NCBI GenBank assembly: GCA_037140955.1
Contig: JBAXDL010000001.1
Location: 114,319-178,318, forward strand
Direction: 5' to 3'
Length of the DNA stretch: 64,000 nucleotides
From: a bacterium
GTDB taxonomy: Bacteria; Patescibacteriota; Minisyncoccia; Moranbacterales; GWC2-37-73
The translations under genes and the position numbers were made by a program. This document shows positions 9,245 to 55,734 of the stretch, piece after piece; position 1 is the first letter of the stretch; every line of letters begins with the position of its first letter. The notes below the pieces were generated by a model. It worked only from the letters and a program-made list of their open reading frames with translations. It was not told the DNA's origin and made no database searches.

Positions 9245-9277
9245 GAAAAATAAAAGCCCCGGCAATGGGGCTTTTTA

Positions 9278-10606: not shown

Positions 10607-10709
10607 AATTTTTAATTTTTACAATTTTTAATTTTATAAATAAATTATAATGTTTTAATTTCCTTTTCAAAGGATAAGCTTGAAGCAAAAAACATTGAAA
10701 ATTCAAAAA

Positions 10710-14800: not shown

Positions 14801-14824
14801 ATCTTTATTTTTTCATTTTTATAT

Positions 14825-17134
14825 TTAAACAGCAGGAACAACAGGTGGAATAACTGGATCCGGAACAACAACAGGATCAGGCTCTGGAATCTTAAAATAT
14901 TCTGATTTACAATCAATAGTTGGCAACGGATCAAGACTTTTATTTTTCTTTTTATTGTCCTTTAGCCAACCTTGTACGCCCTTTTCCCAATTTTTATACT
15001 GCAAATCAGCAGTAGGATCTTTTGGCGCATCGCCACGTGGATTTTCTTTGTTTATGTAATACAAAATATCATGCACATCACCAAATGTTTTTTTCTCGGT
15101 GGTGTCTGATGGGCAAGAATCATTTTGCAAGCAATAATCTCCCTTGTAACCTCTAGCAGTCATTAAGCAAACCTTCACATCTTTTTGAATATTTTCTTCT
15201 CCGTTTAGTACTGGCTTTCCAGTATCCTCTTTTTCATATTTTGGGAATTGCTCAACCATACTGTTTCCCAATGCTTGATTCATGAAAGATCTCCAAATTG
15301 GAGCTGCAACAACAATACCATCAGATCCAACCTTCATTGATGAATTATTGTTGTTTCCAGCCCAAACACCAACAGCAATTGAAGGAGTGAATCCCATTGC
15401 CCAACCATCACGAAATTCATTGGTTGTTCCAGTTTTGGCAGCAACTGGACGATCTGTAAATTTGAATGGATTGTTGTCTCCAAACACCGGAGCGCGATAT
15501 TCATTAGTGGACATGATGTGATCAAGCATGGCAACATATTTTTCTTCCACAACTCTTTGACCAGGATTGTCTTTATATTGTTCAAGCACGGTTCCATCTT
15601 TGTCTTGAATTTTCATGATCGCCACACTATCACGATGCACACCACCAGCAGCCAAAGCGCCATAAGCATTAACATGATCAAGCAAAGTAACCTCTCCTCC
15701 ACCCAACACTAAAGACAAACCGTAACGATCGGGCTCATTCAATCCCTTGATGCCAAGACCTTTTGCAAGAAAAATTGAATCCTTAACTCCTGCCAAATAT
15801 AGGGTCTTAACTGCTGGAATGTTTAGTGACATTGCCAAAGCATTTTTCATTTGCAGTGGACCATGAAATTTTCCATCATAATTTTGCGGAGAATAGTCTT
15901 TTCCAGTATCAGTAGAAAAATTGGTTGGCACGTCATACAGTAATGTTTCTGGAGTATACCCTTTAGTAAAAGCAGTCAAATAAACATACGGCTTGAAAGA
16001 TGAGCCTGGTTGACGATTAGCAAGAGCAACATTAACCTGACCATCAATAGATTTGTCAAAATAATTTTTACTACCAACCATGGCCAAAATTTGACCAGTT
16101 CTTGGATCCTCAGCAACCAAGGCAGCATTTGCTGCTTTGTTAGGAGCATTTTTTGCAGCACCCTCTGAAACAGCCTTTTCTGCAGCTTGCTGCTTGTCCC
16201 AATCAATTGTTGTATAAACTTTCAATCCTCCTTGTTCAACGGCTTGTTCACCATATTTGTTCACCAAATAATCTTTCACATACATCACAAAATGAGGAGC
16301 AGAAATATTGTCTTGCTTTGGATTAACTTCTGCCAAAATATCAACACCCTTAGCATCATCAGCTTGCTGCTGTGTGATATATCCCTGATCAGCCATTTTT
16401 TGCAAAGCAGAACTTTTTCTTCCAACCAATGCATCAAGATGAGAACCAAAAGGAGAATAGTACGTTGGCGCATTTGGCAAAGAAGCAAGCAATGCTGCTT
16501 CCGGCAAAGTCAAATCTTTAGCATTTTTTCCAAAAAAAGTTTGTGCAGCAGCCTCGATTCCATAAGCACTAGAGCCATATGGAATCTGATTCAAATACAT
16601 CGCCAAAATTTCATCTTTTGAATATTTTTGTTCAAGCTCAATTGCTAAGATCAATTCTTTGATTTTTCTGATAATTGTTTTTTCACTAGTAAGCATGGAC
16701 ACCTTAATGAACTGCTGGGTGATTGTGCTTCCTCCCTGCGCCGCTCCACCCTTAATGATATCTTTAAGGGCACTACGCAAAATAGATTTTGGATCAACGC
16801 CATGGTGAGTATAAAACCCCTGATCCTCCAATGCTATGGTGGCATATTTAACATTGTCAGGAATTTCATTGAAAGGAACAATTGTTCTTTTCTCTTCTCC
16901 ATGCACATCATATAGCAAGTGCTCACCTGTTCTGTCGTATATTTTAGTGGATTGAATAATCAACTTTGCATCAAGCGAACTTGCACTTGGCAAATCTTTT
17001 GCAAAATACAAAAAAATACCAACAACAGAAATCACACCCAGAGCAAAAAGTGCTCCCAGAATTTTTGCAGCAAGTTTTAGCTTGCTCTTGTGTGTGCTAT
17101 TTCTAAAATTTTTTGAAATAAAAACTGGTTCCAT
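14825..17134 (-). CDS. penicillin-binding protein 1A (bifunctional transglycosylase/transpeptidase)
   Basis: GT51 motifs (EDQGFYTHHG); SXXK (SSFKP); KTG; Pro-rich C-terminal tail. Confidence 0.9.
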   Translation of the reverse strand: MEPVFISKNFRNSTHKSKLKLAAKILGALFALGVISVVGIFLYFAKDLPSASSLDAKLIIQSTKIYDRTGEHLLYDVHGEEKRTIVPFNEIPDNVKYATIALEDQGFYTHHGVDPKSILRSALKDIIKGGAAQGGSTITQQFIKVSMLTSEKTIIRKIKELILAIELEQKYSKDEILAMYLNQIPYGSSAYGIEAAAQTFFGKNAKDLTLPEAALLASLPNAPTYYSPFGSHLDALVGRKSSALQKMADQGYITQQQADDAKGVDILAEVNPKQDNISAPHFVMYVKDYLVNKYGEQAVEQGGLKVYTTIDWDKQQAAEKAVSEGAAKNAPNKAANAALVAEDPRTGQILAMVGSKNYFDKSIDGQVNVALANRQPGSSFKPYVYLTAFTKGYTPETLLYDVPTNFSTDTGKDYSPQNYDGKFHGPLQMKNALAMSLNIPAVKTLYLAGVKDSIFLAKGLGIKGLNEPDRYGLSLVLGGGEVTLLDHVNAYGALAAGGVHRDSVAIMKIQDKDGTVLEQYKDNPGQRVVEEKYVAMLDHIMSTNEYRAPVFGDNNPFKFTDRPVAAKTGTTNEFRDGWAMGFTPSIAVGVWAGNNNNSSMKVGSDGIVVAAPIWRSFMNQALGNSMVEQFPKYEKEDTGKPVLNGEENIQKDVKVCLMTARGYKGDYCLQNDSCPSDTTEKKTFGDVHDILYYINKENPRGDAPKDPTADLQYKNWEKGVQGWLKDNKKKNKSLDPLPTIDCKSEYFKIPEPDPVVVPDPVIPPVVPAV

Positions 17135-17265
17135 AGTAAAAAATAATAATAGATAAAACGTATATTCATTATAAGCCGATAATGCTTTTTTTCAAAGCTG
17201 CTTTACTATACACTAATTATTAATTTTATCAAGATATCCAACATATATCTTTCTTGATCAATATA

Positions 17266-17290
17266 AAAAATCTGTAACTCACTTGTTACA
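17266..17290. terminator. bidirectional hairpin terminator
   Basis: AATCTGTAAC-TCACTT-GTTACAGATT flanked by A/T runs. Confidence 0.45.
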
Positions 17291-18310
17291 GATTTTTTCA
17301 TACAATTCTAAATAATTTTTTGCCATAACAAGGCTATCAAAATTATCCTTAGCGTATTTCCTACATTCTTTCCTGTCAAATTTGTCAGTGTTCTTCACTG
17401 CGGTAACTAACTCAGCAAAATCATCAGAAAGAAAGGCTATTTTTTCATTTTGTAGCATTTCCGGCAAGGGCCCGATAGTTGTGCCAATAATAGGAGTTCC
17501 GCAAGCCAGGGCCTCTCCCACCACCATAGGGCAAACTTCCGGCCTCCTGATTGGCAAAAGCAAAGCTGATGCACTTTTTAAGTATTCATAAATTTCCACA
17601 TGCGAAACTTCTCCCATATAGATTATATTTATCCCATCCAAAAATGGTTCTATTTTTTCTGCAAAAAATGCTTTTCTCTCCTTGGTGTTTCCGATTCTGC
17701 CAAAAATTAGTAATTTAACACCTGACTTTATTGCAATTTCAATAGCAGTATCTATCCCTTTTTGATCATTCAATCTTCCAACAAACATCAAATACTCCCC
17801 TTTTTCAAAAGAATAGCTTATTTTTTTTGTTGGCACTCCGTTATAAATAATCGCATCTGTTTTTAAAGTTCCTGATTGAGATTGACTGAGTGCATTAGTA
17901 TATAATTTGGTTTTTTCTATAATCTCAAAGGCAGCATCATCAATTCTGTTGTGAAAAGAAAGTAGACATGGAATTGAAACTTTTTCGCACAATGCGCTAG
18001 CATATCGCTGGGAGTGCAAGTGAATGATGTCAAAATCGCTTTCAAATTCTAAAACTTTTTCCTGACTGGCGATTTTTATATCCCTAAAGTCTCTTGGACT
18101 GAGCTTGGAAATGCTTGGCATGTTCCAAATACTTTTTTCTAATGAAACAATGTGTTTTGCTTTTGTGTGCCAATCACCTGGAGCAAACAAAGTCACATCA
18201 ATACCAAGCTCCAAAAAAGCATCTGTTAGATTCTGCGTAACAATCTCAGGACCACCCGTATCACCAAAAGGCGGGGCAACCATAGCAACACGCAGTTTTT
18301 TATTTGTCAT
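17279..18310 (-). CDS. glycosyltransferase family 4
   Basis: GT4 N-terminal and C-terminal Rossmann motifs. Confidence 0.7.
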   Translation of the reverse strand: MTNKKLRVAMVAPPFGDTGGPEIVTQNLTDAFLELGIDVTLFAPGDWHTKAKHIVSLEKSIWNMPSISKLSPRDFRDIKIASQEKVLEFESDFDIIHLHSQRYASALCEKVSIPCLLSFHNRIDDAAFEIIEKTKLYTNALSQSQSGTLKTDAIIYNGVPTKKISYSFEKGEYLMFVGRLNDQKGIDTAIEIAIKSGVKLLIFGRIGNTKERKAFFAEKIEPFLDGINIIYMGEVSHVEIYEYLKSASALLLPIRRPEVCPMVVGEALACGTPIIGTTIGPLPEMLQNEKIAFLSDDFAELVTAVKNTDKFDRKECRKYAKDNFDSLVMAKNYLELYEKICNK

Positions 18311-19260
18311 TATAATAACTCACTTATAGATTCAAAGTTTTCTTGTTTTGTTTTTTCATCTGCAAGCATTGTGACAAGATCAATGCCTGGAGTGGTGTTC
18401 ATTTCAATGAAATATGGTTTTCCGAAGTTATCAAAAATAAAATCCAGTGAATATTGAGGATTGTGAAAAACATTAATTTTCTTGTTTATTCTTTTCAGTA
18501 TTTCTTCTAAGTTTTTTGGAATAAGATCAAGTGAAATCATTTTTCCACTAGCACCTTGATGCAAGTTAGTGAAAAGTGATTTTGGTGCAGCAATACGAGA
18601 AAGAGCATAGGCCAATTTTCCTCCTTGATATACAAGCCTCAAATCTGCAATTTCAGTTTCTTTTGAAATTCCAGGAATTCCTTTTTCGCTCAAAACAAAT
18701 TCCTGCACCAAAACGGGAAAAGAATAATTTTCAGACAATGCTTTTTTTCTTTCTCCAATAAAAATACCAAAACCACCAGAACCATACAGTGGCTTAATTA
18801 CAATTTTTTCAGCTGAAAATTTTCCTATTGCCGCAATAAGTTCAGCTTTATTGTTTGCGACTTTTGACATTGGCATAAACTCACCAAACATCACGTATTG
18901 AGACAACTTATTGTTAAAAGTTGCTCGAAAAAGTGGAGAATTAAAAAGAATAGTTTTTTGTGCCATTTGAAGCTTGAATTCTAGCATTGGATAGTCATAT
19001 TTGCTCAAAATTTTATCATACACCAAATCAGGTGAAATTTCTTTTTCTATTTTTTCCCAAACATTATTTCGATAAGCCCAAGCTTTAGTGAAAACATTTT
19101 TTTCAAGATCATACCATTTAATACTTGCTCTATACAATTCAATATTAGCTTTCTCAGCTCTTTTCATCCAATCTTGCACAGCCAACCTGGTTCCCTCGTT
19201 TGTAATAGGAATTTCTTTTTTCCAATCATCACCTGCATATGCAATAACAATATTTTTCAT
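18310..19260 (-). CDS. ATP-grasp domain protein
   Basis: VIKPLYGSGGFGIFI...LVQEFV ATP-grasp motifs. Confidence 0.6.
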   Translation of the reverse strand: MKNIVIAYAGDDWKKEIPITNEGTRLAVQDWMKRAEKANIELYRASIKWYDLEKNVFTKAWAYRNNVWEKIEKEISPDLVYDKILSKYDYPMLEFKLQMAQKTILFNSPLFRATFNNKLSQYVMFGEFMPMSKVANNKAELIAAIGKFSAEKIVIKPLYGSGGFGIFIGERKKALSENYSFPVLVQEFVLSEKGIPGISKETEIADLRLVYQGGKLAYALSRIAAPKSLFTNLHQGASGKMISLDLIPKNLEEILKRINKKINVFHNPQYSLDFIFDNFGKPYFIEMNTTPGIDLVTMLADEKTKQENFESISELL

Positions 19261-19293
19261 ACTTTTTAGCTAACATTTATTCAATCAAACTAA

Positions 19294-20730
19294 CTATTTA
19301 TTAACATCAATCAAAAATTTTCTCAGATTTCTTTTGCCAACTATTATGGGATATTTTAGATGTGAGCGATTTATCAAGGTCACTCTAGTTGGAATAATAA
19401 GATTATCCATGACTAATGTTATTTTAATGGTTGGTCGATAAGTTGCGCCACTAGCAGACTTGATCACAATGGTGCTTTCAAGATGAGGAATGTGTTTATA
19501 GATATCCCAGCGCTCTTTTTTACTAAGATGAGCAATGTCTGCATATGAAGTTTGAATTTCGCGAAAAGCTTTCACAGTGTCTTCGAAGCCTAGCTGCTCA
19601 GCCAAGTCCATGTCTATTGAAGTAAAGCCAGCCCCCGTGTCAATTTTCGCTTCAACCTCAACAAATTTTCCATTGAGGCCAATCAGCTTCACTTTTTCAA
19701 TTGCAGCAATAACTTTTCTTCCTGAAATTTCCTCCAACTCTTCTTCAATTTCACCACCAAACAAATCTTGACCCACACGAACTCCACGCTGAGCTGTTTT
19801 TATCTTCAAACCCTTGATGCGTTCCAGCCTTTCGCGCAAGCCACTCAAATTGGCAACCTGAATTGAGAGACCTGGACGCGCATTGATTTCCAAAAAAACA
19901 GGACCACGCTCACGATCAATGGCAACATCAGCACCCAAAAATCCCATGCCAGAAATTTCTTGAGCCTTAACAGCCAAAAGCAACATTTCTTTCCAATATG
20001 GAATTTTGATTCCAGAAAGCAACATACGAGTGCCTGGGACATAGTCTATAATCTTTCCCTTTCCAAGCACAGCTGTTGTTGTCACACCAGTTGCCAAATC
20101 AATTCCAATGCCAATTCCACCTTGTTGCAAGTTGGCCTTTCCGCCAGATTCCTTTGTTGGAAGACGAAGCATGGCCATCACCGGAATACGATTAAAAACA
20201 ATCACGCGAATATCAGGAATTCCCTTATAAGCATAGGGCTTGAACAATTTCAAAAGCGTTAGGCGCTCTTCAAAAAATGCAATGTCTGGCATGTTGGCCA
20301 AAGAAAATGCACCATCCAAAATATTTAAAATATGACTTTTTAAGTCTTGCACTGTGACCTTGCTTCCATCTGACTTTATCCAAACAGGCAATGGAAATTC
20401 GGTTTCCCCATTTTCATTGATCAATCCTTTCCCATTGTTTTTCTTTCTTCCATATACAACTAAAATTCCTCCACCACCATATCCACGATTTGGCTTGAGA
20501 GCAAAACTTGCAGGCAAAGAAAACCAATCGAAATTTTCCAATTCATCTGCTGTTCTTATTTTTGCAAGCAATTTTGGCACTGGAATTCCAGCCTTTTTGA
20601 GCATCCTTTTGCTCAAAATTTTGTCATCAGCCAATTTCTTTGCTTTTTTTCTATTGTATGGACGAATATAATCAAGATTGCGAGCATTCATGCCGAGCAA
20701 TTTGTTTCCATTTTTGATAAATTCAAACAT
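19294..20730 (-). CDS. RimK-like alpha-L-glutamate-ligase-type ATP-grasp fused to a retropepsin-like (DUF785) C-terminal domain
   Basis: N-terminal LKPNRGYGGGGILVV ATP-grasp; C-terminal AKIDTGAGFTSID aspartyl-protease-like motif. Confidence 0.6.
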   Translation of the reverse strand: MFEFIKNGNKLLGMNARNLDYIRPYNRKKAKKLADDKILSKRMLKKAGIPVPKLLAKIRTADELENFDWFSLPASFALKPNRGYGGGGILVVYGRKKNNGKGLINENGETEFPLPVWIKSDGSKVTVQDLKSHILNILDGAFSLANMPDIAFFEERLTLLKLFKPYAYKGIPDIRVIVFNRIPVMAMLRLPTKESGGKANLQQGGIGIGIDLATGVTTTAVLGKGKIIDYVPGTRMLLSGIKIPYWKEMLLLAVKAQEISGMGFLGADVAIDRERGPVFLEINARPGLSIQVANLSGLRERLERIKGLKIKTAQRGVRVGQDLFGGEIEEELEEISGRKVIAAIEKVKLIGLNGKFVEVEAKIDTGAGFTSIDMDLAEQLGFEDTVKAFREIQTSYADIAHLSKKERWDIYKHIPHLESTIVIKSASGATYRPTIKITLVMDNLIIPTRVTLINRSHLKYPIIVGKRNLRKFLIDVNK

Positions 20731-23359: not shown

Positions 23360-23395
23360 ATGGGATCCTCCAACGCCTTTTTTATTTGGAAAAAT
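23360..23395. terminator. bidirectional terminator AAAAGGCG...CGCCTTTTTT
   Basis: hairpin with A and T tails. Confidence 0.45.
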
Positions 23396-25379
23396 AATTC
23401 AAAAGCATGTTCAGCTTTAGATTAAATGCGGCAGGAATATTCCTAAGAAAGGTCACTGTATAATGTTCATGCTCTTCATTTTGTGGGGTGAAAAAATAGA
23501 CTCCATCGATTTCATGCATATTTTCCATTTCAAGAGTGCCTGGCTCAACTTTCAATAATTTAATTTTAACACTCTGATTATAAAGCAAAGCAAATTTATT
23601 TTTTTTCTTGATCTCATTTTGAGAAACAACCACTTCTTCTGCTTTATTTTCTACAATCTCCTCATCATTTTGATTATTAAATTGTGCTTCTTGTTGCAAG
23701 GATTGATCTGGGACAAAAATTTCTATTGTTGAATTTTGCATTTTGGGTTTTGGATTTTGTAATATCCATTTCCAGCCCACCCCTTTTACTTTCACATATC
23801 TTTCTCCTTCGGCAATTGAGCCTTCAGCGGCCTTGTATTTAACCTCATGTGCAACTTTTCCGTCAGGATAACGCAATTGTATTTTTGCTTTGGTGTTGTT
23901 GAGCGAAAATCTTGCCACCTCATTGTTGAGTTGTTTTTCTTTTTTCCCTTTGATAATAACGTCTTGTCTGATTGGATGATTCACAAATTTTTTCCAACCC
24001 GTTGCCACACTCCAACCATTTAGATTTATTTTTTTCTTAGTTTTATTTTCCACAGTTATCGATTCGCTGCCTCCATCAGAACCAGCCGGATTAGCATCAA
24101 TGGCCACAATCTTAATTTTTGGATGCGAACATTCTTTCACTTCAACAATAAAATTTTTCACAACATCCTCATTTCCATCAGTGATTTTTACCATTACTTG
24201 ATACTTACCAGTGTTTGAATACTTATGGGTTGTTTTTGCAAGATAACTTTTGTGTCCATCGCCAAAATCCCAAACAACTTTAATGCTTTCACCATCAATG
24301 TCGCCAGTGGAAATAAAAAAACTAGCATAGACATCCACAAAAACATCGTCATCAATTTCAAGCTCACCAAAAGGAAGATTGTTGAAAATATTTTCCAGAC
24401 CTTTTGTTAGAAATTTTGTCCAACGCCAAACAAGTCCATCAAAGCTGAATGATTTTCCCTCTTTGGCGCTTGGATATGTTGCCATTGAGACAGTTTCTCC
24501 ATTTGGATTTTTAAGCTCTACTGTTTCAGTTCCACTATCATTAAGTTCAAGTGTGCAATTTTTTTCAGGTTCATCTTCCACAACCAAAAATTTTTTGTTC
24601 TCAATACTTTTTCCATCAAGCAAACAAACATTTTTTCCATAGTCAACAATTTTCCAACCATCAAGCACAATTTTTTCACCAGAAGAATTGAAAAGTTCCA
24701 CATATTCTCTTTCATTTGTATTTTTGTTTGGATGTGGGTAGAGCTCATTTAGAAAAATTCCATTGGGATATTTTATTTTTTCTTTTTCAGTGAATTTTTT
24801 GTTTTCTTTTCCTGGAGAAGGATTTTCCAAAAGCACAAAATCCTCAGAATTATTGCCGGTGTCTTTTCCATCAAGTCGACCATAACTCTCACCATCCAGT
24901 GGCTGGGTGAAGGGCTTTTCTTTGAAGCTTTTTGCATCTCCCCAACCAACCAAATCAAGCAAGACTCCACTTTTATCAAGAAGACCAACTGTATTGTTTG
25001 CAGCAATTGAATATGACGAACTTGAATAATCCAAATCAGCTTTTATTTCTTGTTTGTATTGAGGATGAGCAATAACAAAAAAATTATGTGCGCCAATTGT
25101 TCCTAAAAAATGAGTTGCACTTACCAAAGAAGAAAAATCATTTCCACTTTCTGTTTTTTTCATTAATTTGTATCCACCTAAAGAAACATCTTCACTGCCA
25201 TCATTATATAGCTCAACAAATTCATTTTTGGTTGATTTTTGGTCGCCTATCAAAATCTCATTGATAACTATTTTCGCCTCGGCAACTCGAAAAACAAAAA
25301 ACACCGCCAAAAGCAGTGTCAGAAAAATTTGATGACAAAAAAATAAGCTGGTTATTTTTTTTCTTCTTTTCTTTTTCAT
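23382..25379 (-). CDS. large secreted lamin-tail-domain (LTD) repeat protein
   Basis: signal peptide; VINEILIGDQ...FVELYNDGSEDVSL and a second LNELYPHP...YVELFNSSGE LTD motif; PKD-like segment. Confidence 0.6.
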   Translation of the reverse strand: MKKKRRKKITSLFFCHQIFLTLLLAVFFVFRVAEAKIVINEILIGDQKSTKNEFVELYNDGSEDVSLGGYKLMKKTESGNDFSSLVSATHFLGTIGAHNFFVIAHPQYKQEIKADLDYSSSSYSIAANNTVGLLDKSGVLLDLVGWGDAKSFKEKPFTQPLDGESYGRLDGKDTGNNSEDFVLLENPSPGKENKKFTEKEKIKYPNGIFLNELYPHPNKNTNEREYVELFNSSGEKIVLDGWKIVDYGKNVCLLDGKSIENKKFLVVEDEPEKNCTLELNDSGTETVELKNPNGETVSMATYPSAKEGKSFSFDGLVWRWTKFLTKGLENIFNNLPFGELEIDDDVFVDVYASFFISTGDIDGESIKVVWDFGDGHKSYLAKTTHKYSNTGKYQVMVKITDGNEDVVKNFIVEVKECSHPKIKIVAIDANPAGSDGGSESITVENKTKKKINLNGWSVATGWKKFVNHPIRQDVIIKGKKEKQLNNEVARFSLNNTKAKIQLRYPDGKVAHEVKYKAAEGSIAEGERYVKVKGVGWKWILQNPKPKMQNSTIEIFVPDQSLQQEAQFNNQNDEEIVENKAEEVVVSQNEIKKKNKFALLYNQSVKIKLLKVEPGTLEMENMHEIDGVYFFTPQNEEHEHYTVTFLRNIPAAFNLKLNMLLNYFSK

Positions 25380-25405: not shown

Positions 25406-25993
25406 TTAGTCATCTGCTCCTTGAATTTTTTCCTTTATCATTTCTCCAATTTCTGCCGTGTCATTGTCTTGCTGCTTTCTTTGCAGCTCCAAAATAATAT
25501 TTTTAACATGATATGGATCAGAAACTGTTCTAAAGATGAACTCACCTTCTTCTGCTGCTGTTTGAATTTTCACATCGCCAAAATTTAGCATAGTGGGAAT
25601 TATACCCTCAACTTGAGTGGTCACATCTTGAATTTTTTCATAACGCAGCTCGCTAACCTTTCGCATGAACAGCCCTTTTTGTTCAATATTAACAATGCGC
25701 TGAGCAGTGATCACCCAAACATCAAAATAATAATCAACCCAAATCAAAAAACCAAACAACCACAAAGCAAGCAAAACAACATTTTCAAAAAACAATGTCG
25801 CTGCCCTATAATTGTCCGCCAGCATGTCAGGAAAAAGCAGCGGAAAATACAAAACAGCGCCAACAAAAACAACCAACATCAAAATCAAAAAGAAATATTG
25901 CTGCAAAAGATAAAACCAATTGCGATGATAGACATACAAAATTTCATCGCTTTCATCCAAATCCTTGAAGTGATAATTTTCAAATTCTTTCAT
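25406..25993 (-). CDS. membrane protein with bacterial PH-like domain (YdbS/DUF304-like)
   Basis: two N-terminal TM helices then a PH-like region. Confidence 0.45.
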   Translation of the reverse strand: MKEFENYHFKDLDESDEILYVYHRNWFYLLQQYFFLILMLVVFVGAVLYFPLLFPDMLADNYRAATLFFENVVLLALWLFGFLIWVDYYFDVWVITAQRIVNIEQKGLFMRKVSELRYEKIQDVTTQVEGIIPTMLNFGDVKIQTAAEEGEFIFRTVSDPYHVKNIILELQRKQQDNDTAEIGEMIKEKIQGADD

Positions 25994-26281: not shown

Positions 26282-27292
26282 CTATGACAATTTTTGCAAG
26301 TTTGCTTCTGGCATGTCAATTCCCATGTGCAAATATCCATGCTCGGTGACCATGCGCCCTCTTGGGGTGCGCACAAGAAAACCAAGTTGAATCAAAAACG
26401 GCTCATACACATCTTCAATGGTTTCAATCTCTTCTGATGTTGCAGCTGCTATTGTTGAAATTCCCACTGGTCCACCATTGAATTTTTTGATAATAGTTTC
26501 CAAAATGTAGCGATCAGTTGGTTCAAGACCAAGATGATCGACGTCCATCATTTCAAGTGCTTTTCTGGCAATCACACTGTCAATCAGTGGATGATCATTG
26601 ATTTGAGCAAAATCACGAACTCTTTTGATGATTCTGTTTCCAACACGTGGAGTTTTGCGACTAGAAATTGCAATTTCGCGAGCACCAGTTTCATCTAATT
26701 CTATTCCCAAAATTTTTCCGGAGCGATGAATGATGTTTTTCATCTCATCTTCATTGTAAAATTCAAGTCGATGAATCGCACCAAAACGATTGCGCAGCGG
26801 ATTGGAAAGCGCGCCAAGTCGAGTTGTGGCACCAATCAAAGTGAATTTTGGCAGATCAAGTTGCAATGTTCGCGCTGATGGACCTTTTCCAATAATCACA
26901 TCCAATTTGTAATCTTCCATAGCAGGATATAAAACTTCTTCAATCAATTTGTTCAATCGATGAATTTCATCAATAAAAAGAACATCACCATCTTGCAAAT
27001 TGGTCAAAATCGAGCCAAGGTCGCCAACTCTTTCAATGGCAGGACCAGATGTCACCTTGATGTTAACACCCATCTCTTTGGCGATAATATGAGCCAGGGT
27101 TGTCTTTCCAAGTCCAGCCGGCCCATACAAAAGCACATGTTCAATTGATTCACCTCTTTTCTTGGCAGCATCAATAAACATCTGCAAATTTTTGCGAATT
27201 TTTTGTTGTCCAACATATTCACTCAAGCGCTGTGGACGAAGCGTGTTGTCCAAAATGACATCATCCTCTTGCTCTTCTGAAGTAGTAATCAT
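26282..27292 (-). CDS. ruvB: Holliday junction DNA helicase RuvB
   Basis: [12 protein letters not shown]...[14 protein letters not shown] Walker A; AAA+ RuvB. Confidence 0.92.
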
Positions 27293-30837: not shown

Positions 30838-31413
30838 ATGCGAAATTATCAAATTAACAATTGTGCTGAATGCAAAAAAACTTTGGAAAAAAATGAGAAC
30901 GTAAATATCCGTCATGTATACGGAATGCCAGAAGCTATATGTGATTCATGCTGGAATAAAAGAAAAGTTTTACGGTCTTACATTATTTCCGATCTTCCTC
31001 AGGAAATTTATCACGAAGAAGATGTATACCTAGGTTACTTCCCTGCAGTCATACTAAGTGAAGTTTGTGAAATAGAAGAATTTCAGGGATTAAACAGTGA
31101 TGGTAGAATAAAGAGGGATAATAGTGGCTGTTATTTGGACTGTTATTATCCATCGTGCTCAGAAGACATTCAGAGTGATTTATTTGAAGAAATTTGGAAA
31201 AATAAAAACACTAAAAGTTGGAAGAAAGAGGTTTGGCATTTTGCGGGAGATTCTTCCTGGAGCATTAATGTTTACAGTCAATATTATTCATCGCAAAATA
31301 TTAAAATTGCACGGATTTACCAAGAAGCTAATATGGAAGTAATTTTTCCAGAAAGCTTACGACCTTTCATTTGCAGAGAAGCAATTGAAAAAGATATGTT
31401 CTTTCGAGACTAG
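30838..31413 (+). CDS. Cys-rich hypothetical protein with N-terminal zinc-ribbon-like motif (191 aa)
   Basis: NNCAECKK...CDSCWNK; later CYLDCYYPSC. Confidence 0.5.
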   Translation: MRNYQINNCAECKKTLEKNENVNIRHVYGMPEAICDSCWNKRKVLRSYIISDLPQEIYHEEDVYLGYFPAVILSEVCEIEEFQGLNSDGRIKRDNSGCYLDCYYPSCSEDIQSDLFEEIWKNKNTKSWKKEVWHFAGDSSWSINVYSQYYSSQNIKIARIYQEANMEVIFPESLRPFICREAIEKDMFFRD

Positions 31414-31445: not shown

Positions 31446-31480
31446 AAAGGCGGAACGTAAAACGTTCCGCCTCTTTTTTT
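31446..31480 (+). terminator. terminator, copy 2 of the identical 34-bp element
   Basis: AAAGGCGGAACGTAAAACGTTCCGCCTCTTTTTTT. Confidence 0.6.
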
Positions 31481-31529: not shown

Positions 31530-34500
31530 CTACACCACCCTCTCCACCTCCTCCAAACTCGTCTCCCCTTCCAAAACTTTCAATAATCCATCTTGCTCCA
31601 TGGTGATCATGCCATTTTCAACTGCCTTGTCACGAATTTGTGAAGATGATGATCCTTGCGTGATCAATTCTTCAATGTCGCGATCAACCACCAAAACTTC
31701 GCTGATTGTTGTGCGTCCTTTATATCCAATATTATTGCATTTTTCGCAACCATTAGGTTCAAAAACTTTTTCTATTGCCGGAACGATGATACCTGATTTT
31801 TCTGAAATACTTTCCAAGATTTTTTTCATGCTAGCAACCTCATCTTGATTTAATGCTCTTTCCTTTTTGCAATTACAAAGTTTTCGCACCAATCGCTGAG
31901 CCATCAAAGCATTGACCGCTGTGGCCAAATCATCAGAGCGAACACCCATGTTGATCAAGCGCTGAATTGAGCCAGCAGCATCATTTGTGTGCAGTGTAGA
32001 GAGAATTGAATGACCAGTCAGCGCTGCCTGAATTGCAATGTTGGCAGTTTCCTCATCACGAATTTCACCAATCATCATGATATCAGGATTTTGACGAAGC
32101 AATGCTCGCAAAGCTGTTGAAAAAGAATATCCCTCTTTGTCATTAACAGATGTTTGCAAAATTCCATCCAGCTGATATTCAATCGGGTCTTCAACTGTGA
32201 TGATCTTTACTTCTGGATTGTTCAAAACTTTAAGTGCACTATACAACGTGGTTGTTTTTCCAGACCCAGTTGGTCCAGTGGTCAAGAAAACTCCATTTGG
32301 TTTTTTCGTTTCAGTCAAAATCTTTTCCAAATTTTGTTTCCTGATTCCCAATTTTTCAAGATCAAGCGCAACTGATGATTTGTTGAGAAGTCGCATCACC
32401 ACCGTTTCCCCATATCCTCCCAAAATTATTGAAACACGAACATCAACTTTTGTGTCAGTGATGTGTTTGTATGGCTTTTCCAGGGCAATTGAAAAACGAG
32501 AATCCATCACGCCACCACGCACTTCAGTGGAAAAGCCACTCAAAAACTTGATGCTTCCAAGCAGGCTAGGATATTCATTCAAAGGTATTTCCGCAATTGT
32601 TTGCAAGATTCCATCCATGCGATAACGAACTTTCACACTCTTTTCTTCTGGTTCAATGTGAATGTCACCAACATTCAACAGCAAACTGCTGGCAAAGATA
32701 TATTTAGCACTACTTTTTTGATTTGATTTTTCAATCAATTCCTTGAGATTTTCTCTGGGTGAAATTTTCTCTTCCACAAGCACCATGTCTTCTTCTGAAA
32801 TATCAATTGAGCGAGACATTGATTGTGCCATCAATTTTTCATAAATCTCTTCCAAAAATTCTGTCTGTCCTGTTGCGCGCCAAACTTCATCCATTGATGT
32901 AAGCCCTTCAATGGCTTTCAAAATTCCGTCTTGTGCCATGGTGATCATTCCATCTTCCAAGGCTGTTTGTGCAATTTCTCGTTCTCCACCCATTTCCAAA
33001 ATCAATTTTTCAATGTTCTCTGAAATTGTCAGCACCTCAAAAATTCCAATGCGCCCCTTGAATCCAAGTCCATGACATTTGTCACAACCAACTGGACGAT
33101 AAAGTTTTTCAATATTTTTTGGTATTTCAATTTTTGCTTTGGGAGAAATGATGGCAAGAATTTTCTTGATACTATCAGTAGTTTCCTTGGCTGGAACATA
33201 TTCCTCCATGCAATTTGAGCACAATTTTCGCACCAAGCGTTGTGCAATAAAAGCATTCACAGAAGGAGCAATAATGTTTGGCTTCACTCCAAGTTCAATA
33301 AAGCGAGGAATTGAAGCTGGCGCATTGTTGGTGTGCAAAGTTGAAAGCACAAGATGACCCGTAAGGGCAGCGTTCACTGAAATATCAGCTGTTTCCTCAT
33401 CACGAATTTCACCAACCAAAATAACATCAGGATCTTGACGCACAATCGCGCGAAGACCTTCCGCAAAAGTATAGTTTCGATCTTTGGCAATTTGTGTTTG
33501 TGAAATATTTTTCACTTCATATTCAATCGGATCTTCAATTGTGATTATTTTTACACCGGCTGTGTTTAACTTGTTAACAAGTGCATAAAGTGTGGTCGTT
33601 TTCCCGCTGCCAGTTGGTCCTGTTGTCAAAATCATACCATGCGGTTTTGCAACTTCTCTTTGCACGCTTTCATAGGCCAAGCCTCGCAATCCCAAATCTT
33701 CCACGGAAAGCATAATATCAGCCTGACTCAAAAGCCTCATAACAACTGACTCTCCATGATTTCCTGGAATAATATTTGTTCTCACATTTATCTTACCTTC
33801 ATCCATCTCAACCGAAAAATGACCATCTTGCGCAATGTCGCGAATGTTGATTTTCATCTTTCCCATCATCTTGATGCGGGACAAAATGAAACGATAGGTT
33901 TCGTTTGGAAATTTTCCAACATCCTGCAAAACACCATCGATGCGAAAACGCATTCTGACATCTTCCTCTTGTGGTTCAAAATGAACATCACTGGCCTTCA
34001 TTTTCACAGCGCCAGCCATGATAATTGAAATGATTTGAGTTGTTGGAATTTCCTGAATTCTTTTTTTCAGATCCAGCATGTTTCCAAAGTCTTTTTCAAA
34101 TTTTTCCAAATCTTCACCACTCAAAGTGATTTGCATTGCTTCCAGATTTTCCAACATTGGAATTTCAGCATATCTTTTCCAGATTTTTTCCAGAGAAGAT
34201 TTTGAAATTACATACAAATAAACAACCCAGCCTTTTTCAGACTTGAGCGCTTCAACATATTCGATTGTTTTTTTATTTGTCGGATCAACAACTCCAATTC
34301 TGGCTTCCTTACCTGCTTTTTGAAAAACACAAAGACCAAATTCTCTTGATTCTTTTTCGTCAATAACTCTCAAATCATCCGCGGCAACTGGAAAAATATT
34401 CAAATCAACATAGGAAAGATTGTTAGCATTGGCAACTTGAGCAGCTTGCTCCTCTTCTGATTGCCCTCGCATGCGCTGCATAATCTTTTCAGATTGTTCG

Positions 34501-34556
34501 TCTTTTTCGGTAGAATGTATTAATTTTTTATTTGAAATTTTTACCATATACCTCAA
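31530..34556 (-). CDS. tandem-duplicated GspE/PilB-type secretion/pilus ATPase (two complete ATPase modules in one 1008-aa polypeptide)
   Basis: two sets of N2 domain + Walker A GPTGSGKTTTLY + Asp box + Walker B (DPDVILVGEIRD / NPDIMMIGEIRD) + His box (GHLVLSTLHTN / GHSILSTLHTN) + tetracysteine (CSNC..CDKC / CNCK..CEKC). Confidence 0.8.
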   Translation of the reverse strand: MRYMVKISNKKLIHSTEKDEQSEKIMQRMRGQSEEEQAAQVANANNLSYVDLNIFPVAADDLRVIDEKESREFGLCVFQKAGKEARIGVVDPTNKKTIEYVEALKSEKGWVVYLYVISKSSLEKIWKRYAEIPMLENLEAMQITLSGEDLEKFEKDFGNMLDLKKRIQEIPTTQIISIIMAGAVKMKASDVHFEPQEEDVRMRFRIDGVLQDVGKFPNETYRFILSRIKMMGKMKINIRDIAQDGHFSVEMDEGKINVRTNIIPGNHGESVVMRLLSQADIMLSVEDLGLRGLAYESVQREVAKPHGMILTTGPTGSGKTTTLYALVNKLNTAGVKIITIEDPIEYEVKNISQTQIAKDRNYTFAEGLRAIVRQDPDVILVGEIRDEETADISVNAALTGHLVLSTLHTNNAPASIPRFIELGVKPNIIAPSVNAFIAQRLVRKLCSNCMEEYVPAKETTDSIKKILAIISPKAKIEIPKNIEKLYRPVGCDKCHGLGFKGRIGIFEVLTISENIEKLILEMGGEREIAQTALEDGMITMAQDGILKAIEGLTSMDEVWRATGQTEFLEEIYEKLMAQSMSRSIDISEEDMVLVEEKISPRENLKELIEKSNQKSSAKYIFASSLLLNVGDIHIEPEEKSVKVRYRMDGILQTIAEIPLNEYPSLLGSIKFLSGFSTEVRGGVMDSRFSIALEKPYKHITDTKVDVRVSIILGGYGETVVMRLLNKSSVALDLEKLGIRKQNLEKILTETKKPNGVFLTTGPTGSGKTTTLYSALKVLNNPEVKIITVEDPIEYQLDGILQTSVNDKEGYSFSTALRALLRQNPDIMMIGEIRDEETANIAIQAALTGHSILSTLHTNDAAGSIQRLINMGVRSDDLATAVNALMAQRLVRKLCNCKKERALNQDEVASMKKILESISEKSGIIVPAIEKVFEPNGCEKCNNIGYKGRTTISEVLVVDRDIEELITQGSSSSQIRDKAVENGMITMEQDGLLKVLEGETSLEEVERVV

Positions 34557-34695
34557 GTACTAATTTTTTATTTTTATTTTAGCAAGCATTGTTTCTATAA
34601 AAACATTATACCGCAAATCAACCTTCTCGGCAAAACAAAAAACAACCAAGCAATAAGATTGGTTGTCGAAAAACAATATTCACATGAATTAAGAT

Positions 34696-35874
34696 TTATA
34701 TGACTAGCAATGCTGCTTTTATTTTTTCCACAATGCGTTGTCCCGATTCTTTTGTGTCAGTTGATTGCTCTGAAAATTCGCACATGTCACCCACAATTCG
34801 AACTTCCAAAATTTCACTAATTTTTTTCAACTGTTCATTATTGATGCATTTGACCACGCCATGCACTTGCCCAACTTCTTTGTTGTATAGCACCATAAAA
34901 ATCTTACCAGCAGAGTAATTTTCTTTAATTTTGTCCAAAATAAAAGGCACATCGCTTGGCTTGCTGCGACTTTGCACAAAATCCTCCAAAAAAACAGGTG
35001 CCCAGGCCAAAGCAATTTCATCTTCCCAAAAAAGTCTCGCCATCACACGACCCCAAAGTTTCAAAAGATGTAATGGTTGCGTTTTATACAAATATCGAAT
35101 TATTTTTTGTTGATCAGCGCCTTTTGACATCAGCATTGATGCTATTTGCAATGATTTTGGAGTAGTGTTCTTCTTTTGAAAACTATTTGTTGCATCAATA
35201 ATCCCAGTCAGCAAACTTTCTGCCATGTTTTCATCCAAGTCTTTTTGATTTATTTTGAAAATCAAATCAGCAACAACTTCTGATGTGCAAGATGCTGTGA
35301 TGTCAACAATATTTATCTGTCCAAAATTATCATTTGATCCATGATTATCAATGTTCACCACTGGCACTTCATAAAAAATATCAGGATTTTCCTCATACAC
35401 TTTTCCAAGTGACTCTTTGTCTGGAGATCCAAGCACAATCACCAAGTCATATTTGAACTTCGCAGGAATAAAAGAAAAATCACGAGGATCAATTGATCCT
35501 TTTTCTGGCGTAATGAAAATCCGCAATTCCTCATCAACTCTCTCAGTTCGCACATTAGTGATTTTGTTGAATTTTGTGTTAAAAGCCAACACAAAGTCAC
35601 GCGCACCAGCCAATGAATCAATGATTTCTTCAGGTTTAGTTAAAAACAAAAATCTTTCCAGATATTCCTCGCCGGTGGGAACAACAACTGTCACTTCAAT
35701 ATTATTTTTTTTCAAGAAAAAATAAGTTGCCCAAGCAGCCCCAACAGCATCACCAGAAAAATCTTGCGCCATAAAAACAAGCGCGTGCTTGGAATTTTTC
35801 AAGACATTATTAAATTGTTGAGCATAATCCAAACTCATGAAAAAAATCTCATCTAAAAAGTAATTTTTTGCCAA
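34696..35874 (-). CDS. DHH/DHHA1-family phosphoesterase-like protein (NrnA-like, motif III degenerate DNH)
   Basis: QDFSGDAVGA motif I-like; NIDNHGSN in place of DHH; C-terminal DHHA1-like region. Confidence 0.45.
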   Translation of the reverse strand: MAKNYFLDEIFFMSLDYAQQFNNVLKNSKHALVFMAQDFSGDAVGAAWATYFFLKKNNIEVTVVVPTGEEYLERFLFLTKPEEIIDSLAGARDFVLAFNTKFNKITNVRTERVDEELRIFITPEKGSIDPRDFSFIPAKFKYDLVIVLGSPDKESLGKVYEENPDIFYEVPVVNIDNHGSNDNFGQINIVDITASCTSEVVADLIFKINQKDLDENMAESLLTGIIDATNSFQKKNTTPKSLQIASMLMSKGADQQKIIRYLYKTQPLHLLKLWGRVMARLFWEDEIALAWAPVFLEDFVQSRSKPSDVPFILDKIKENYSAGKIFMVLYNKEVGQVHGVVKCINNEQLKKISEILEVRIVGDMCEFSEQSTDTKESGQRIVEKIKAALLVI

Positions 35875-36339: not shown

Positions 36340-36873
36340 TTGAGCTATGTTTTATCCTATATGGAAAACAATCACATTTCACCATCAGCAGCAACAACGA
36401 AAAAACTTGGACAACTTCTTGGCCAAGAACTTTGTGGTGGCGAAATAATTTGCTTGTCTGGGGATCTTGGTGCCGGCAAAACAACCTTCACGCAAGGACT
36501 TTTGAGTGGATTGAAAATAAAAGGACCCTACACGAGCCCAACCTTTGCAATTCTCAAGCAGTATAATGTATTAAGTAAAAAGTATAATGCAAAATCCATT
36601 ATACATGATGTATATCATATTGATGCATATCGCATTACATCAAAAGATTTACTAGAACTTGGCTTTAAGGATTTTGCAAATAAAGAAGATTCCATAGTCA
36701 TCATTGAATGGCCTGAGAATGTCAAAAAAATAATCCCCACCACCGCACTATGGATTAACTTCGAGTGGCTGAGCGAAAAAGAAAGAAAAATTACACTATC
36801 AACAAAAAAAGAGCAGCATGGCAATGTCATTCCGGGCTTGACCCGGAATCCAGAGAGTTTCACTAAAAAATAA
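36340..36873 (+). CDS. tsaE: tRNA threonylcarbamoyladenosine biosynthesis ATPase TsaE
   Basis: LSGDLGAGKTTFTQGLL P-loop; the C-terminal 12 codons are read out of the MITE-like element. Confidence 0.8.
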   Translation: MSYVLSYMENNHISPSAATTKKLGQLLGQELCGGEIICLSGDLGAGKTTFTQGLLSGLKIKGPYTSPTFAILKQYNVLSKKYNAKSIIHDVYHIDAYRITSKDLLELGFKDFANKEDSIVIIEWPENVKKIIPTTALWINFEWLSEKERKITLSTKKEQHGNVIPGLTRNPESFTKK

Positions 36874-55668: not shown

Positions 55669-55734
55669 AAATATAATTGGCTAAAGGTTTTCTTAGTTAA
55701 GGTTTGACAACATCCTTGTCCCGATTAAACATTC

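Follow-up and report, generated by a model that had tools for sequence, protein, structure and literature searches.

Motors of the PilB/GspE type are thought to be homohexamers with a rotary cycle of C2 symmetry, so that subunits on opposite sides of the ring are equivalent. The gene studied here, located in a 64,000-nucleotide stretch of DNA (the window), encodes two such motor modules in one chain, and it raises the questions of whether a ring motor needs six identical sites, whether it needs exact C2 symmetry, and how many docking domains suffice. The product of the gene (31530..34547, minus strand; 1005 aa, with the stop codon at 31530-31532) belongs to the PilB/GspE clade of PilT/VirB11-like secretion ATPases, of which it is an additional, lineage-specific representative. 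The best explanation of the whole, favoured with modest confidence, is a tandem-duplicated extra PilB-type motor that would form an A-B ring with both kinds of site active and would drive a filament.

Domain architecture

The reading frame stayed open in the 5' direction as far as a TTG at 34556 (31530..34556, minus strand), and the single 1008-aa ORF of the initial annotation is obtained if that TTG is used as the start. Orthologues in the databases begin at the ATG at 34547; this start yields the 1005-aa protein to which all residue numbers refer, and public collections already hold an identical 1005-aa protein (P0001). A GAGG ribosome-binding site (34551..34554, minus strand; upstream sequence …TTGAGGTATATG) lies 3 nt 5' of the ATG (34547-34545) and overlaps the upstream TTG.

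The layout of the protein is N1 – [N2-CTD]A – 51-aa linker – [N2-CTD]B. Pfam returned two full T2SSE stretches (PF00437; 753 bits against a gathering cut-off of 24.9, the best stretch spanning profile positions 7-370 of 370), as well as a single weak MshEN/T2SSE_N domain at the N-terminus. In the self-alignment, modules A and B were 44% identical over 446 aa (E=2e-130), and each was ~41-42% identical to PilB. Two complete units of N2 and ATPase core in one chain, as first described, were thus borne out by the two T2SSE stretches and both motif sets.

The single N1 domain (T2SSE_N/MshEN-type fold; 34170..34421, minus strand; residues ~43-126) matched PF05157 weakly, with 21 bits, and scored above the cut-off in the proteins of relatives; its pLDDT was ~80-87 in the AF2 model of the target. 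No c-di-GMP-type MshEN motif, RLGxx(L/V/I), was seen at the N-terminus by eye. The N1-N2 linker (34038..34169, minus strand; residues 127-170; pLDDT 34-51) was homologous in the self-alignment to the inter-module linker (32715..32867, minus strand; residues 561-611; dN/dS ~0.17). The inter-module linker opens with a conserved TGQTEFLEEIYEKLM helix and, in the AF2 model, passes through a short low-confidence stretch (572-578) into ordered helices that lead to the N2 domain of module B. Since the duplicated unit is residues ~119-560, repeated as 561-1005, the junction lies at ~32715-32867 and not near 33050, where it had first been placed. The PilB/GspE clade has one N1 per motor module; here one N1 docking domain served two modules, module B being preceded by the linker alone.

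Module A consists of an N2 domain (33678..34037, minus strand; residues 171-290; R200, R202, R256 and R271) and an ATPase core, or CTD (32868..33677, minus strand; residues 291-560). Module B consists of an N2 domain (32334..32714, minus strand; residues 612-738; R641, R643, R684, R704 and R719, all kept) and a CTD (31533..32333, minus strand; residues 739-1005). The Walker A motif GPTGSGKTTTLY contributed K316 in A and K764 in B, and the Asp box EDPIE contributed E338/D339/E342 and E786/D787/E790, respectively. The Walker B motif was DPDVILVGEIRD in A (E380) and NPDIMMIGEIRD in B (E828, in the context NPD…GE828IRD), with the pore-loop Glu at E385 and E833, and the His box TGH..STLHTN supplied H398/H405 and H846/H853. 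Both modules retained the phosphate-sensing arginines along with the pore-loop Glu and a set of four cysteines. Each unit had been credited with a tetracysteine motif; four cysteines were found in A (Cys443/446/488/491, CxxC…CxxC) and in B (Cys891/893/934/937), but the first pair of B (C-N-C...CEKC) is CxC and not CxxC, a CxC...CxxC variant that is the norm for module B across the family. A Zn-type cysteine subdomain is, on these motifs, present in both modules.

Residues were mapped to G. metallireducens PilB (GmPilB) from McCallum 2017 (PMC5424180) and an alignment to 5zfr. All known ATP-binding, hydrolysis and neighbour-coupling residues of GmPilB were kept in both modules, with equivalents of R271, R286, E357, E400, T411, H413, H420 and R455 conserved; the clade-specific inter-chain arginine R455 corresponds to R440 in A and R888 in B, both invariant. 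Both modules superposed on the PilB structures 5tsh and 5oiu (TM 0.87-0.89 on the target), and structure comparison found no two-module chain among PDB chains.

Family assignment

Taken per module, the scores fell below the family cut-offs with the PilB profile (TIGR02538; 474 bits for A with N1 and 413 for B, cut-off 675.65), the GspE profile (TIGR02533; 477 and 419, cut-off 630.25), the PilT/PilU profile (TIGR01420; 196 and 165, cut-off 319.1) and the ComGA profile (NF041000; 244 and 230, cut-off 300). The full-length protein passed TIGR02538 with 876 because the scores of two modules add up, an inflation of equivalog scores that concerns the annotation of tandem proteins. A canonical Moranbacteria PilB, from the contig L068, reached only 526 with TIGR02538 and was likewise under the cut-off.

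Each module has the N2D + CTD fold of PilB (G. metallireducens and G. sulfurreducens PilB and T. thermophilus PilF; 5TSG/5TSH, 5ZFR, 5IT5, 5OIU), all of its motifs and the equivalents of R271, R286, R455 and E400, and the chain has the T2SSE_N domain. The differences from PilB are the two modules per one N1, the module-specific substitutions and the location outside the pil operon. GspE/EpsE (1P9R, 4KSR, 4PHT) belongs to the same clade with equally good scores, and has in common with the present protein the tetracysteine motif and an N1 domain of the type that binds GspL/PilM-type partners; the tandem architecture and the scores under the equivalog cut-off set the latter apart, and there was no T2SS context. 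CPR bacteria encode PilB, PilT, PilC and PilM/N/O and not PilQ, and because they are without an outer membrane and secretin (PMC6744442), a T2SS role for the tandem ATPase is unlikely. A fusion of PilB with PilT (extension-retraction) was rejected, as module B, like module A, keeps the cysteine subdomain, which PilT/PilU ATPases do not have; it reached only 165 bits with the PilT profile, and it clustered with PilB-type modules. No description of a tandem PilB/GspE ATPase was found in the open-access full-text literature or bioRxiv, and the architecture appears to be previously undescribed.

Probable assembly as a ring

A covalent dimer had been taken to imply a trimer-of-dimers ring, and three tandem protomers in one ring is the most likely arrangement. 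An ancient tandem duplication joined two complete motor modules (N2 + RecA-like CTD) behind a single N1. Three polypeptides would then close one six-module ring in strict A-B-A-B-A-B alternation that keeps the native N2D(n):CTD(n+1) packing units, the ~50-residue inter-module linker filling the place of the ancestral N1-N2 linker. Such a ring would offer only three N1 domains for docking to the membrane platform, and ATP would be hydrolysed at both kinds of site in a rotary cycle. The arithmetic of a six-module ring suits both the double fusions (3x2) and the lone triple fusion (2x3), each of which divides six. The AF2 monomer of the tandem protein had a pTM of 0.44, too low to fix the relative placement of the modules.

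The known PilB structures are homohexameric and all form C2-symmetric CCOCCO rings with equivalent opposite subunits (PMC6858323). An alternating ring would set A opposite B, and therefore exact C2 symmetry would be impossible and the match to PilB inexact, which counts against such a ring. An extended version of the reading proposes an obligate A-B pseudo-hexamer with a different cycle (e.g. C3-type alternating open/closed), division of labour between A and B, and a second motor sharing its platform with canonical PilB/PilT, possibly for a Ruv/DHH-coupled DNA-uptake fibre; taken as a whole, it is given rather little credence. If the A-B pseudo-hexamer is true, the protein would offer a naturally occurring, covalently ordered secretion ATPase from which one could learn what symmetry and how many identical sites the PilT/VirB11 family requires.

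Hexamers built from covalent or obligate dimers, with fixed order and specialised sites, are known from single-chain ClpX pseudohexamers (engineered), Pex1/Pex6 and Rvb1/Rvb2; these are of the AAA+ class, either engineered or on separate chains, and none is PilT/VirB11-like. A different outcome is seen in KaiC, the type II AAA+ proteins p97/ClpB and the T7SS protein EccC, in which two to three P-loop modules per chain are stacked as separate rings. The present protein resembles them in having multiple P-loop modules by internal duplication, and since tandem modules often stack in such chains, six chains could form a coaxial A6 ring on a B6 ring (12 modules, ~680 kDa), one of which would engage the platform. 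In an engineered EpsE-Hcp1 C-terminal fusion (PDB 4KSR/4KSS) a ring is placed coaxially under the CTD face, and a second stacked ring is geometrically possible because C-terminal fusion partners can sit beneath that face. A stacked particle would also carry six N1 domains and so keep docking at its usual 6:6 stoichiometry, and the AF2 model leaves the inter-module geometry undefined. Nevertheless, the modules were identical right after duplication, when a three-chain ring would have retained native interfaces and stacking would have required a new one, and the PilT-like N2D(n):CTD(n+1) packing units would favour incorporation within one ring. The pore-loop acidic residues E385 and E833, thought to contact PilC, were invariant in both modules, which would be left unexplained in a ring that is free of the platform. 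The N2 domain of B has diverged at canonical positions and the CTD of A is fully canonical, a pattern that fits heterotypic A/B contacts better. Stacked rings are thus unlikely, although they fare best among the alternatives to the single A-B ring.

Catalytic residues and divergence of the modules

Walker A, the Asp box, the Walker B Glu and the His box were invariant or nearly so in both modules of 236 orthologues. Neither half was without a core catalytic residue in that alignment, consistent with the initial annotation of both modules as apparently catalytically intact, and one dead module was rejected for the lineage of the window. The dN/dS ratio was ~0.04-0.06 in N2 and CTD, in A and B alike, and purifying selection is equally strong on both halves.

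The suggested asymmetric specialisation of the two sites was recovered in part, as module-specific fixed substitutions. In module A the equivalent of GmPilB R257 is gone (QDGR to QDGH/T/Q): position 243 is His in the present protein, where canonical PilB has QDG-Arg, and across sequences it was H in 75%, T in 11% and Q in 6%, and never R. In module B this arginine was kept in 100% of sequences. The fixed changes of module B were ASDIH to GDIH, PQDG to VxDS, IP to IL, RQDPD to RQNPD and CxxC to CxC, at N2/CTD positions otherwise ~85-99% conserved.

Complementary fixed differences of this kind (A without the R257 equivalent; B with RQNPD, GDIH, VxDS and CxC) would also suit a mixed ring in which one module type turns over ATP usefully and the other is a structural or allosteric nucleotide binder. 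Parallels are Pex1/Pex6 D1, the F1 alpha subunits and the inactive modules of other duplicated ATPases. Single proteins point the same way, with a Walker A K to T change in the first module of an unrelated independent fusion (P0144) and loss of the cysteine motif from module B of P0126. On the other side, the Walker A Lys, the Asp-box Glu, the Walker B Glu, both His and the R271 and R286 equivalents were invariant in the 236 sequences, and dN/dS was equally low in A and B. Moreover, the part played by GmPilB R257 is confined to a salt bridge at the open, ATP-bound interface, and it makes no phosphate contact (PMC5424180). A purely regulatory module of either type is accordingly held to be quite unlikely, and ATP turnover at both sites of the A-B ring is preferred.

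Genomic neighbourhood and proposed role

The upstream neighbour on the same strand encodes a DHH-family phosphoesterase (34696..35874, minus strand; Pfam DHH). In 65 related loci, and likewise at a 43%-identical locus (P0125), the gene directly upstream was a same-strand DHH gene, and the phosphoesterase may be co-transcribed or functionally linked with the tandem ATPase. The conserved order, a housekeeping neighbourhood, was tsaE<, DHH>, tandem gene>, ruvB/ruvC>, with ruvB downstream in 64 loci.

Pilus genes were not linked. In the 64-kb window, a scan for pilin motifs, Pfam annotation of 10 large ORFs and a search of every ORF with the module HMM found neither a second T2SSE gene nor a pilin motif, and in 85 of 86 related loci the 10 kb on either side were free of pilus genes. 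The PilB/GspE label therefore stood as clade membership and did not extend to a pilus-operon ATPase, and because of these 85 loci the pilus assignment rests on homology only. The Moranbacteria contig L068 carried the tandem gene together with a separate canonical pilB-pilT-pilC-pilin cluster, including a separate PilT-like gene of 362 aa.

Type IV pili play a central part in how CPR bacteria attach to hosts and scavenge DNA, and the motor most likely powers a type-IV-filament-like fibre whose platform (PilC/PilM) and pilins would be encoded elsewhere. The fibre could be another pilus or one for DNA uptake (competence-type), the latter considered because the ruvB/ruvC/DHH neighbourhood recurs. 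In Moranbacteria and related Parcubacteria (ultra-small, CPR) the gene provides a third motor unit of the PilB type, encoded apart from the pilus operon in a conserved DHH/Ruv neighbourhood. A partial precedent is the Saccharibacteria strain TM7x, which has two T4P systems with pilB2 adjoining recAX (PMC12206443). TM7x is likewise a member of the CPR with an extra PilB paralogue beside the main pilB/pilT and near recombination genes; its PilB2 is single-module and has its own pilC2 and pilM2N2O2, whereas the Moranbacteria gene is tandem and platform genes are absent.

The same neighbourhood could indicate that the ATPase was recruited to a cytoplasmic process other than a filament, e.g. nucleic-acid handling with DHH and RuvB/RuvC. 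The order tsaE-DHH-gene-ruvB persisted at 43% identity, ruvC began 5 bp past the stop codon of the tandem gene at one locus (P0130), and pilus genes were unlinked with a separate canonical PilB in existence. However, the protein keeps the features of PilB/GspE extension ATPases (N1, the Zn-type cysteines, the R455 equivalent and the pore-loop Glu), streamlined CPR genomes often conserve the order of unrelated housekeeping genes, and the DHH/ruv neighbourhood was absent at the P0461 locus. A non-filament role is very doubtful, and a filament motor remains the preferred reading.

Conservation and origin of the fusion

Over 200 protein clusters of independent metagenomic origin shared the architecture, and the junction was uninterrupted in at least 80 species-level genomes, nearly all of them Moraniibacteriota/Parcubacteria. 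A GTDB scan, for which the junction alignment was built from 6 close sequences, gave 323 confirmed matches, and the best 80 of the 323 all spanned the junction in a continuous frame (80/80). Both motif sets and an intact frame were present in 66 of 70 untruncated ORFs; the ORF was interrupted in 2 of 70 related genomes (L038 and L045), a level that sporadic MAG errors or pseudogenes would explain. The best protein matches (120/120) were ~1005-1030 aa with two Walker A motifs, barring a few exceptions, namely a few truncated proteins (823-980 aa) and a triple fusion (P0034, 1460 aa). Another 14 representatives of 50%-identity clusters, 38-54% identical, had the two-module architecture, and further clusters of ~1000 aa were found.

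The fusion is genuine and has been conserved by vertical descent throughout Moranbacteria and the wider Parcubacteria/Paceibacteria. A missed stop or frameshift that merged two adjacent pilB genes, a concern raised in the initial annotation, has next to no chance of being the explanation and was rejected, since the frame is continuous in the window, in the best 80 GTDB loci and in 66 of 70 ORFs, the architecture is uninterrupted in hundreds of separately assembled contigs (NCBI, JGI, ENA, Logan), the inter-module linker carries a conserved motif, the remaining two frames hold 4 and 8 stops across the junction, and no module B comes with an N1 domain or a start context of its own.

A tree of the modules placed the B modules in a single clade and grouped the A modules with single-module CPR PilBs. 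It indicates that duplication and fusion happened once, anciently, in Parcubacteria and independently at least three times elsewhere. P0034 was the single triple fusion known here, and a dedicated search found no others. Two diverged modules are thus hard-wired, with the subunit order fixed and the N1 docking domains halved, and have been kept by selection in hundreds of species, which makes the protein a natural test system for ring motors; the tandem chain makes it straightforward to mutate one type of site at a time.

Two features flank the gene. A promoter-like TTGCCG-17-TATAAT (34605..34633, minus strand), a consensus match only (10/12), lies in the 148 bp that separate the DHH gene from the tandem gene. 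Between the tandem gene and the convergent ORF 30838-31413 is a GC-rich hairpin with a perfect 11-bp stem (31448..31472; scored on the plus strand), 58 nt beyond the stop codon of the tandem gene; the hairpin is a likely terminator.

Reading Frame and Domain Architecture

The tandem gene lay in a single long ORF of the minus strand (31530..34556), with 1008 codons counted from TTG. A GAGG ribosome-binding site overlapped the TTG and an ATG came next, at 34547; because all database orthologues were called from the ATG, a product of 1005 aa (31530..34547) is most likely. Pfam returned two complete T2SSE (PF00437) stretches and one weak N-terminal T2SSE_N/MshEN domain, and modules A and B aligned to each other with 44% identity over 446 residues (E = 2e-130). 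The repeated unit spanned approximately residues 119-560 and then 561-1005, including the linker preceding N2 and leaving N1 out. The layout is therefore N1 – linker – [N2-CTD]A – 51-aa linker – [N2-CTD]B. The initial annotation was thus right in placing two complete modules in one ORF, with 1005 aa likelier than the 1008 aa that it gave; N1 was single and not duplicated, and the junction was at window positions ~32715-32867 and not near 33050.

The Walker A motif (GPTGSGKTTTLY; K316 in module A and K764 in module B), the Asp box EDPIE (E342 and E790), an atypical Walker B (DPDVILVGE380IRD and NPDIMMIGE828IRD), the His box (H398 and H405, and H846 and H853) and four cysteines were present in each module. 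All the motifs initially listed were found, except that the first cysteine pair of module B was CxC and not CxxC.

In the AF2 model (71-sequence alignment) the domains were well folded (mean pLDDT 76), and the arrangement between modules was undefined (pTM 0.44); the linker was of low confidence at residues 572-578, followed by ordered helices (585-607) running into N2 of module B. Each module matched PilB, PilF and EpsE chains in the PDB by Foldseek (TM on target 0.87-0.89), with no two-module chain among the solved structures. A perfect hairpin (31448-31472) separated the ATPase gene from a convergent ORF at 30838-31413(+), which encoded 191 aa, was cysteine-rich with CxxC pairs near the N-terminus, and had no Pfam match.

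Distribution of the Tandem Architecture

An identical protein was present in public collections, labeled "MAG: GspE/PulE family protein". The best 120 clusters (90% identity level) were 66-100% identical to the window protein and 1005-1032 aa long, except for a few truncated members (823-980 aa) and the 1460-aa P0034. All carried two Walker A motifs, P0034 having three; they came from NCBI, JGI, ENA and Logan assemblies and bore the names Moranbacteria, Parcubacteria or Patescibacteria. When 1.84 billion cluster representatives were scanned without a profile, 14 additional double-module representatives emerged (978-1018 aa, 38-54% identity), whose named members were of the Parcubacteria group or Paceibacterota, and searches seeded with two of these distant doubles returned many more clusters of ~1000 aa. 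A search of GTDB with the junction segment, taking a single genome for each species, confirmed 323 matches, so that the survey of related genomes called for initially found the fusion to be widespread. The records of the best 80 were nearly all Moraniibacteriota or Parcubacteria MAGs. Many records titled 'uncultured Bdellovibrionales bacterium' (loci L008, L011, L013, L015, L029, L030 and others) had a tandem gene of the Moranbacteria type in the same syntenic setting, and these MAG submissions seem to bear the wrong organism label.

The missed stop or frameshift that had been considered at the junction was not found. One tblastn segment covered the junction in all of the best 80 of the 323 GTDB matches, and 66 of the 70 loci whose ORF was not cut by a contig end had a frame of 1006-1089 codons, free of interruptions and encoding two copies each of Walker A and Walker B. 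With the same uninterrupted architecture in independent assemblies, and with the other two reading frames closed across the junction in the window, a merged-gene assembly artefact was excluded.

Conservation of the Two Modules

Across 113 aligned full-length orthologues, identity to the window protein was 81% (N2) and 84% (CTD) for module A and 81% and 77% for module B, and lower for the two faster-evolving regions, N1 at 52% and the linker between the modules at 59%. Against ten relatives, dN/dS was ~0.04-0.06 in all four motor domains and ~0.17 in N1 and the linker, both being rough values with dS saturated.

Functional residues of Geobacter metallireducens PilB (GmPilB; PMC5424180) were mapped through the 5zfr alignment, the chain numbering of which is offset by +14, as confirmed by the positions of T411, H413, H420 and E357. 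The equivalents in modules A and B, respectively, were R271 and R719 for the phosphate sensor R286, R256 and R704 for the Asp-box sensor R271, E342 and E790 for E357 of the Asp box, T396 and T844 for T411, H398 and H846 for H413, and H405 and H853 for H420 of the His box, R440 and R888 for the inter-chain contact R455, and E385 and E833 for the pore-loop E400. All eight showed no or almost no variation in either module (236 Moranbacteria-type doubles vs. 109 single-module representatives).

The only canonical functional residue lost was the module A equivalent of R257, which in GmPilB forms a salt bridge only in the open, ATP-bound interface (PMC5424180). Among the 236 doubles, QDGR of module A was replaced by QDG-H (75%), -T or -Q and was never R, and the corresponding Arg of module B was present in 100% of sequences. 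Module B had fixed departures of its own from positions ~85-99% conserved in single-module proteins: ASDIH to GDIH, loss of the SRxK Arg, PQDG to VxDS, IP to IL, RQDPD to RQNPD (N in 100%) and CxxC to CxC. Judged from the conserved catalytic residues and the fixed module signatures, both sites appear competent for catalysis, and the modules have clearly sub-specialised. The initial proposals of two intact modules and of possible asymmetric specialisation agree with this prediction, and the careful alignment that had been advised found the core catalytic residues in both halves. Outside the window's lineage, the distant double P0126 (1002 aa) had lost the cysteine motif of module B (…RTLCVETSSE… / …STEDCPSGYEG…) and kept its Walker motifs, a module-specific decay.

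Origin of the Fusion

In a rough neighbour-joining module tree without support values, all B modules from the main lineage (window family, P0121-P0130, P0133 and P0134) formed one clade and the A modules fell among single-module CPR PilBs, which implies that duplication and fusion took place once, long ago, and that the gene was then inherited vertically in Parcubacteria/Paceibacteria. In two other tandem fusions, P0132 (995 aa; modules 75% identical to each other) and P0131 (994 aa; 56%), the two modules of the protein paired with each other in the tree; both are tandem duplications of a PilB-like ATPase that arose independently and more recently, and the fusion has therefore arisen repeatedly. 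The linker, of ~45-55 residues, was retained in every independent fusion.

The triple protein P0034 (1460 aa; locus L003, 10001-14383 of JGI contig Ga0248662_100121) had one N1 and three N2-CTD modules, with Walker A occurring three times, and lay in the same tsaE-DHH neighbourhood as the tandem genes. Its middle module was a hybrid, B-type in the linker and N2 and A-type in the C-terminal part, the outcome expected if modules A and B of a double had crossed over unequally. It was a singleton in the protein collection; because its modules were only 51-58% identical to each other, it is an evolved gene and not a misassembly. An unrelated and clearly different independent fusion, P0144 (1047 aa; NCBI/Logan, 37.7-kb contig, composition not CPR-like), combined a PilC-type platform domain and a tandem ATPase in one chain: T2SSF domains, a T2SSE module with a K to T change in Walker A (GPTGSGTT), and an intact T2SSE module.

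Proposed Assembly of the Motor

In this family the hexamer consists of six rigid N2D(n):CTD(n+1) packing units. ATP is clamped where the Walker A face of one unit meets the N2D arginines of the following one, with PilC thought to sit in the pore (PMC5424180, PMC6858323). PilB structures are all C2 CCOCCO rings, and a C3-like alternating pattern has been seen in PilT, FlaI and DotB crystals (PMC6858323).

On balance, and with modest confidence, three tandem chains would form a single ring of six modules, because modules A and B would have been identical just after the tandem duplication and one three-chain ring would keep all native interfaces, the former N1-N2 linker tethering CTD of module A to N2 of module B. 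A ring of six modules could be made up from doubles (3 × 2) and equally from the triple (2 × 3). The pore-loop Glu and inter-chain Arg kept in both modules would fit with both lining the same functional pore; a stacked double ring of six A and six B modules is an unlikely arrangement. Somewhat less likely again is a mixed ring with one module mainly regulatory, given the sub-specialisation on one side and the predicted competence of both sites on the other.

In the three-chain ring, A and B would alternate strictly, with three N1 domains per ring. Unlike in PilB homohexamers, exact C2 equivalence would be impossible because an A module would always be opposite a B module, and the cycle would either tolerate the loss of C2 or take a C3-like alternating pattern. 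The tandem ATPase may thus serve as a useful natural experiment for motor mechanism.

Genomic Context and Putative Load

The 64-kb window was ordinary chromosome (dnaA/dnaN, Mur ligases, polA, ruvB, pyruvate kinase), with no T2SSE-type gene other than the tandem gene and no pilin-like ORF. A DHH-family phosphoesterase gene (34696-35874(-) in the window) directly preceded the tandem gene, in the same orientation, at 65 loci, with tsaE (36340-36873(+)) divergent and upstream of it; ruvB (26282-27292(-)) was downstream in 64 loci, followed by genes of a bPH_2 protein (25406-25993(-)) and an LTD/PKD protein (23382-25379(-)). The order tsaE< DHH> tandem-ATPase> ruvB> bPH_2> LTD/PKD> was strikingly well kept across dozens of species (loci L002-L084) and with the 43% identical P0125; this may be due to a shared function in DNA uptake or recombination, or to frozen synteny alone. 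At the P0130 locus (L085) ruvC started 5 bp past the ATPase stop codon, at the P0461 locus the neighbourhood differed, and in the window the ATPase gene was separated from ruvB by TrmB-family genes and small ORFs.

Pilus genes were absent within ±10 kb at 85 of 86 loci. The exception (L068, Ca. Moraniibacteriota MAG STB_169, JAQTRS010000008.1; tandem gene at 8435-11461(+)) had a canonical pilus cluster on the minus strand (14494-20377), ~7 kb from the tandem gene, with a single-module PilB (546 aa, MshEN and T2SSE), a PilT-like ATPase (362 aa), PilC (402 aa, T2SSF twice) and three N_methyl pilins. Identity between this PilB and each tandem module was only ~40%. The tandem ATPase therefore represents an extra paralogue distinct from the operon PilB, and the name PilB, taken as that of a pilus-operon ATPase, does not apply. 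Modules A and B scored 474 and 413 bits with the NCBIfam PilB model (cut-off 675), 477 and 419 bits with GspE (cut-off 630), and 244 and 230 bits with ComGA (cut-off 300). The protein belongs in the PilB/GspE clade and is not an equivalog of PilB, GspE or ComGA; at full length it passed the GspE and PilB cut-offs solely by summing two module scores, by which automated pipelines over-confidently name such tandem proteins.

Tandem sequences entered the databases with the first CPR genomes, under the plain annotation PilB or GspE/PulE family, and no description of a tandem PilB/GspE-type ATPase was found in the literature (open-access papers and bioRxiv). Fold, chemistry and family are familiar; what is new, as far as found, is that two modules are covalently joined in one chain, that this arrangement is widely conserved, and that the protein is an extra motor encoded away from the pilus operon.

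CPR bacteria have type IV pili with PilB, PilT, PilC and PilM/N/O and no secretin (PMC6744442), and Saccharibacteria have two such systems, the pilB2 of the second adjoining recAX (PMC12206443). Because this recAX-linked pilB2 resembles the ruvB/ruvC neighbourhood of the tandem gene, a second pilus or a DNA-uptake fibre is the most plausible load, the driven machine being assigned by homology only. A role outside filament assembly, linked to the DHH/Ruv neighbourhood and drawing on the same gene order, is very improbable.

Since dnaN adjoined dnaA (54520-57156(-)), the window is probably next to the replication origin. Cumulative GC skew fell steadily to ~48 kb of the window and was flat beyond.
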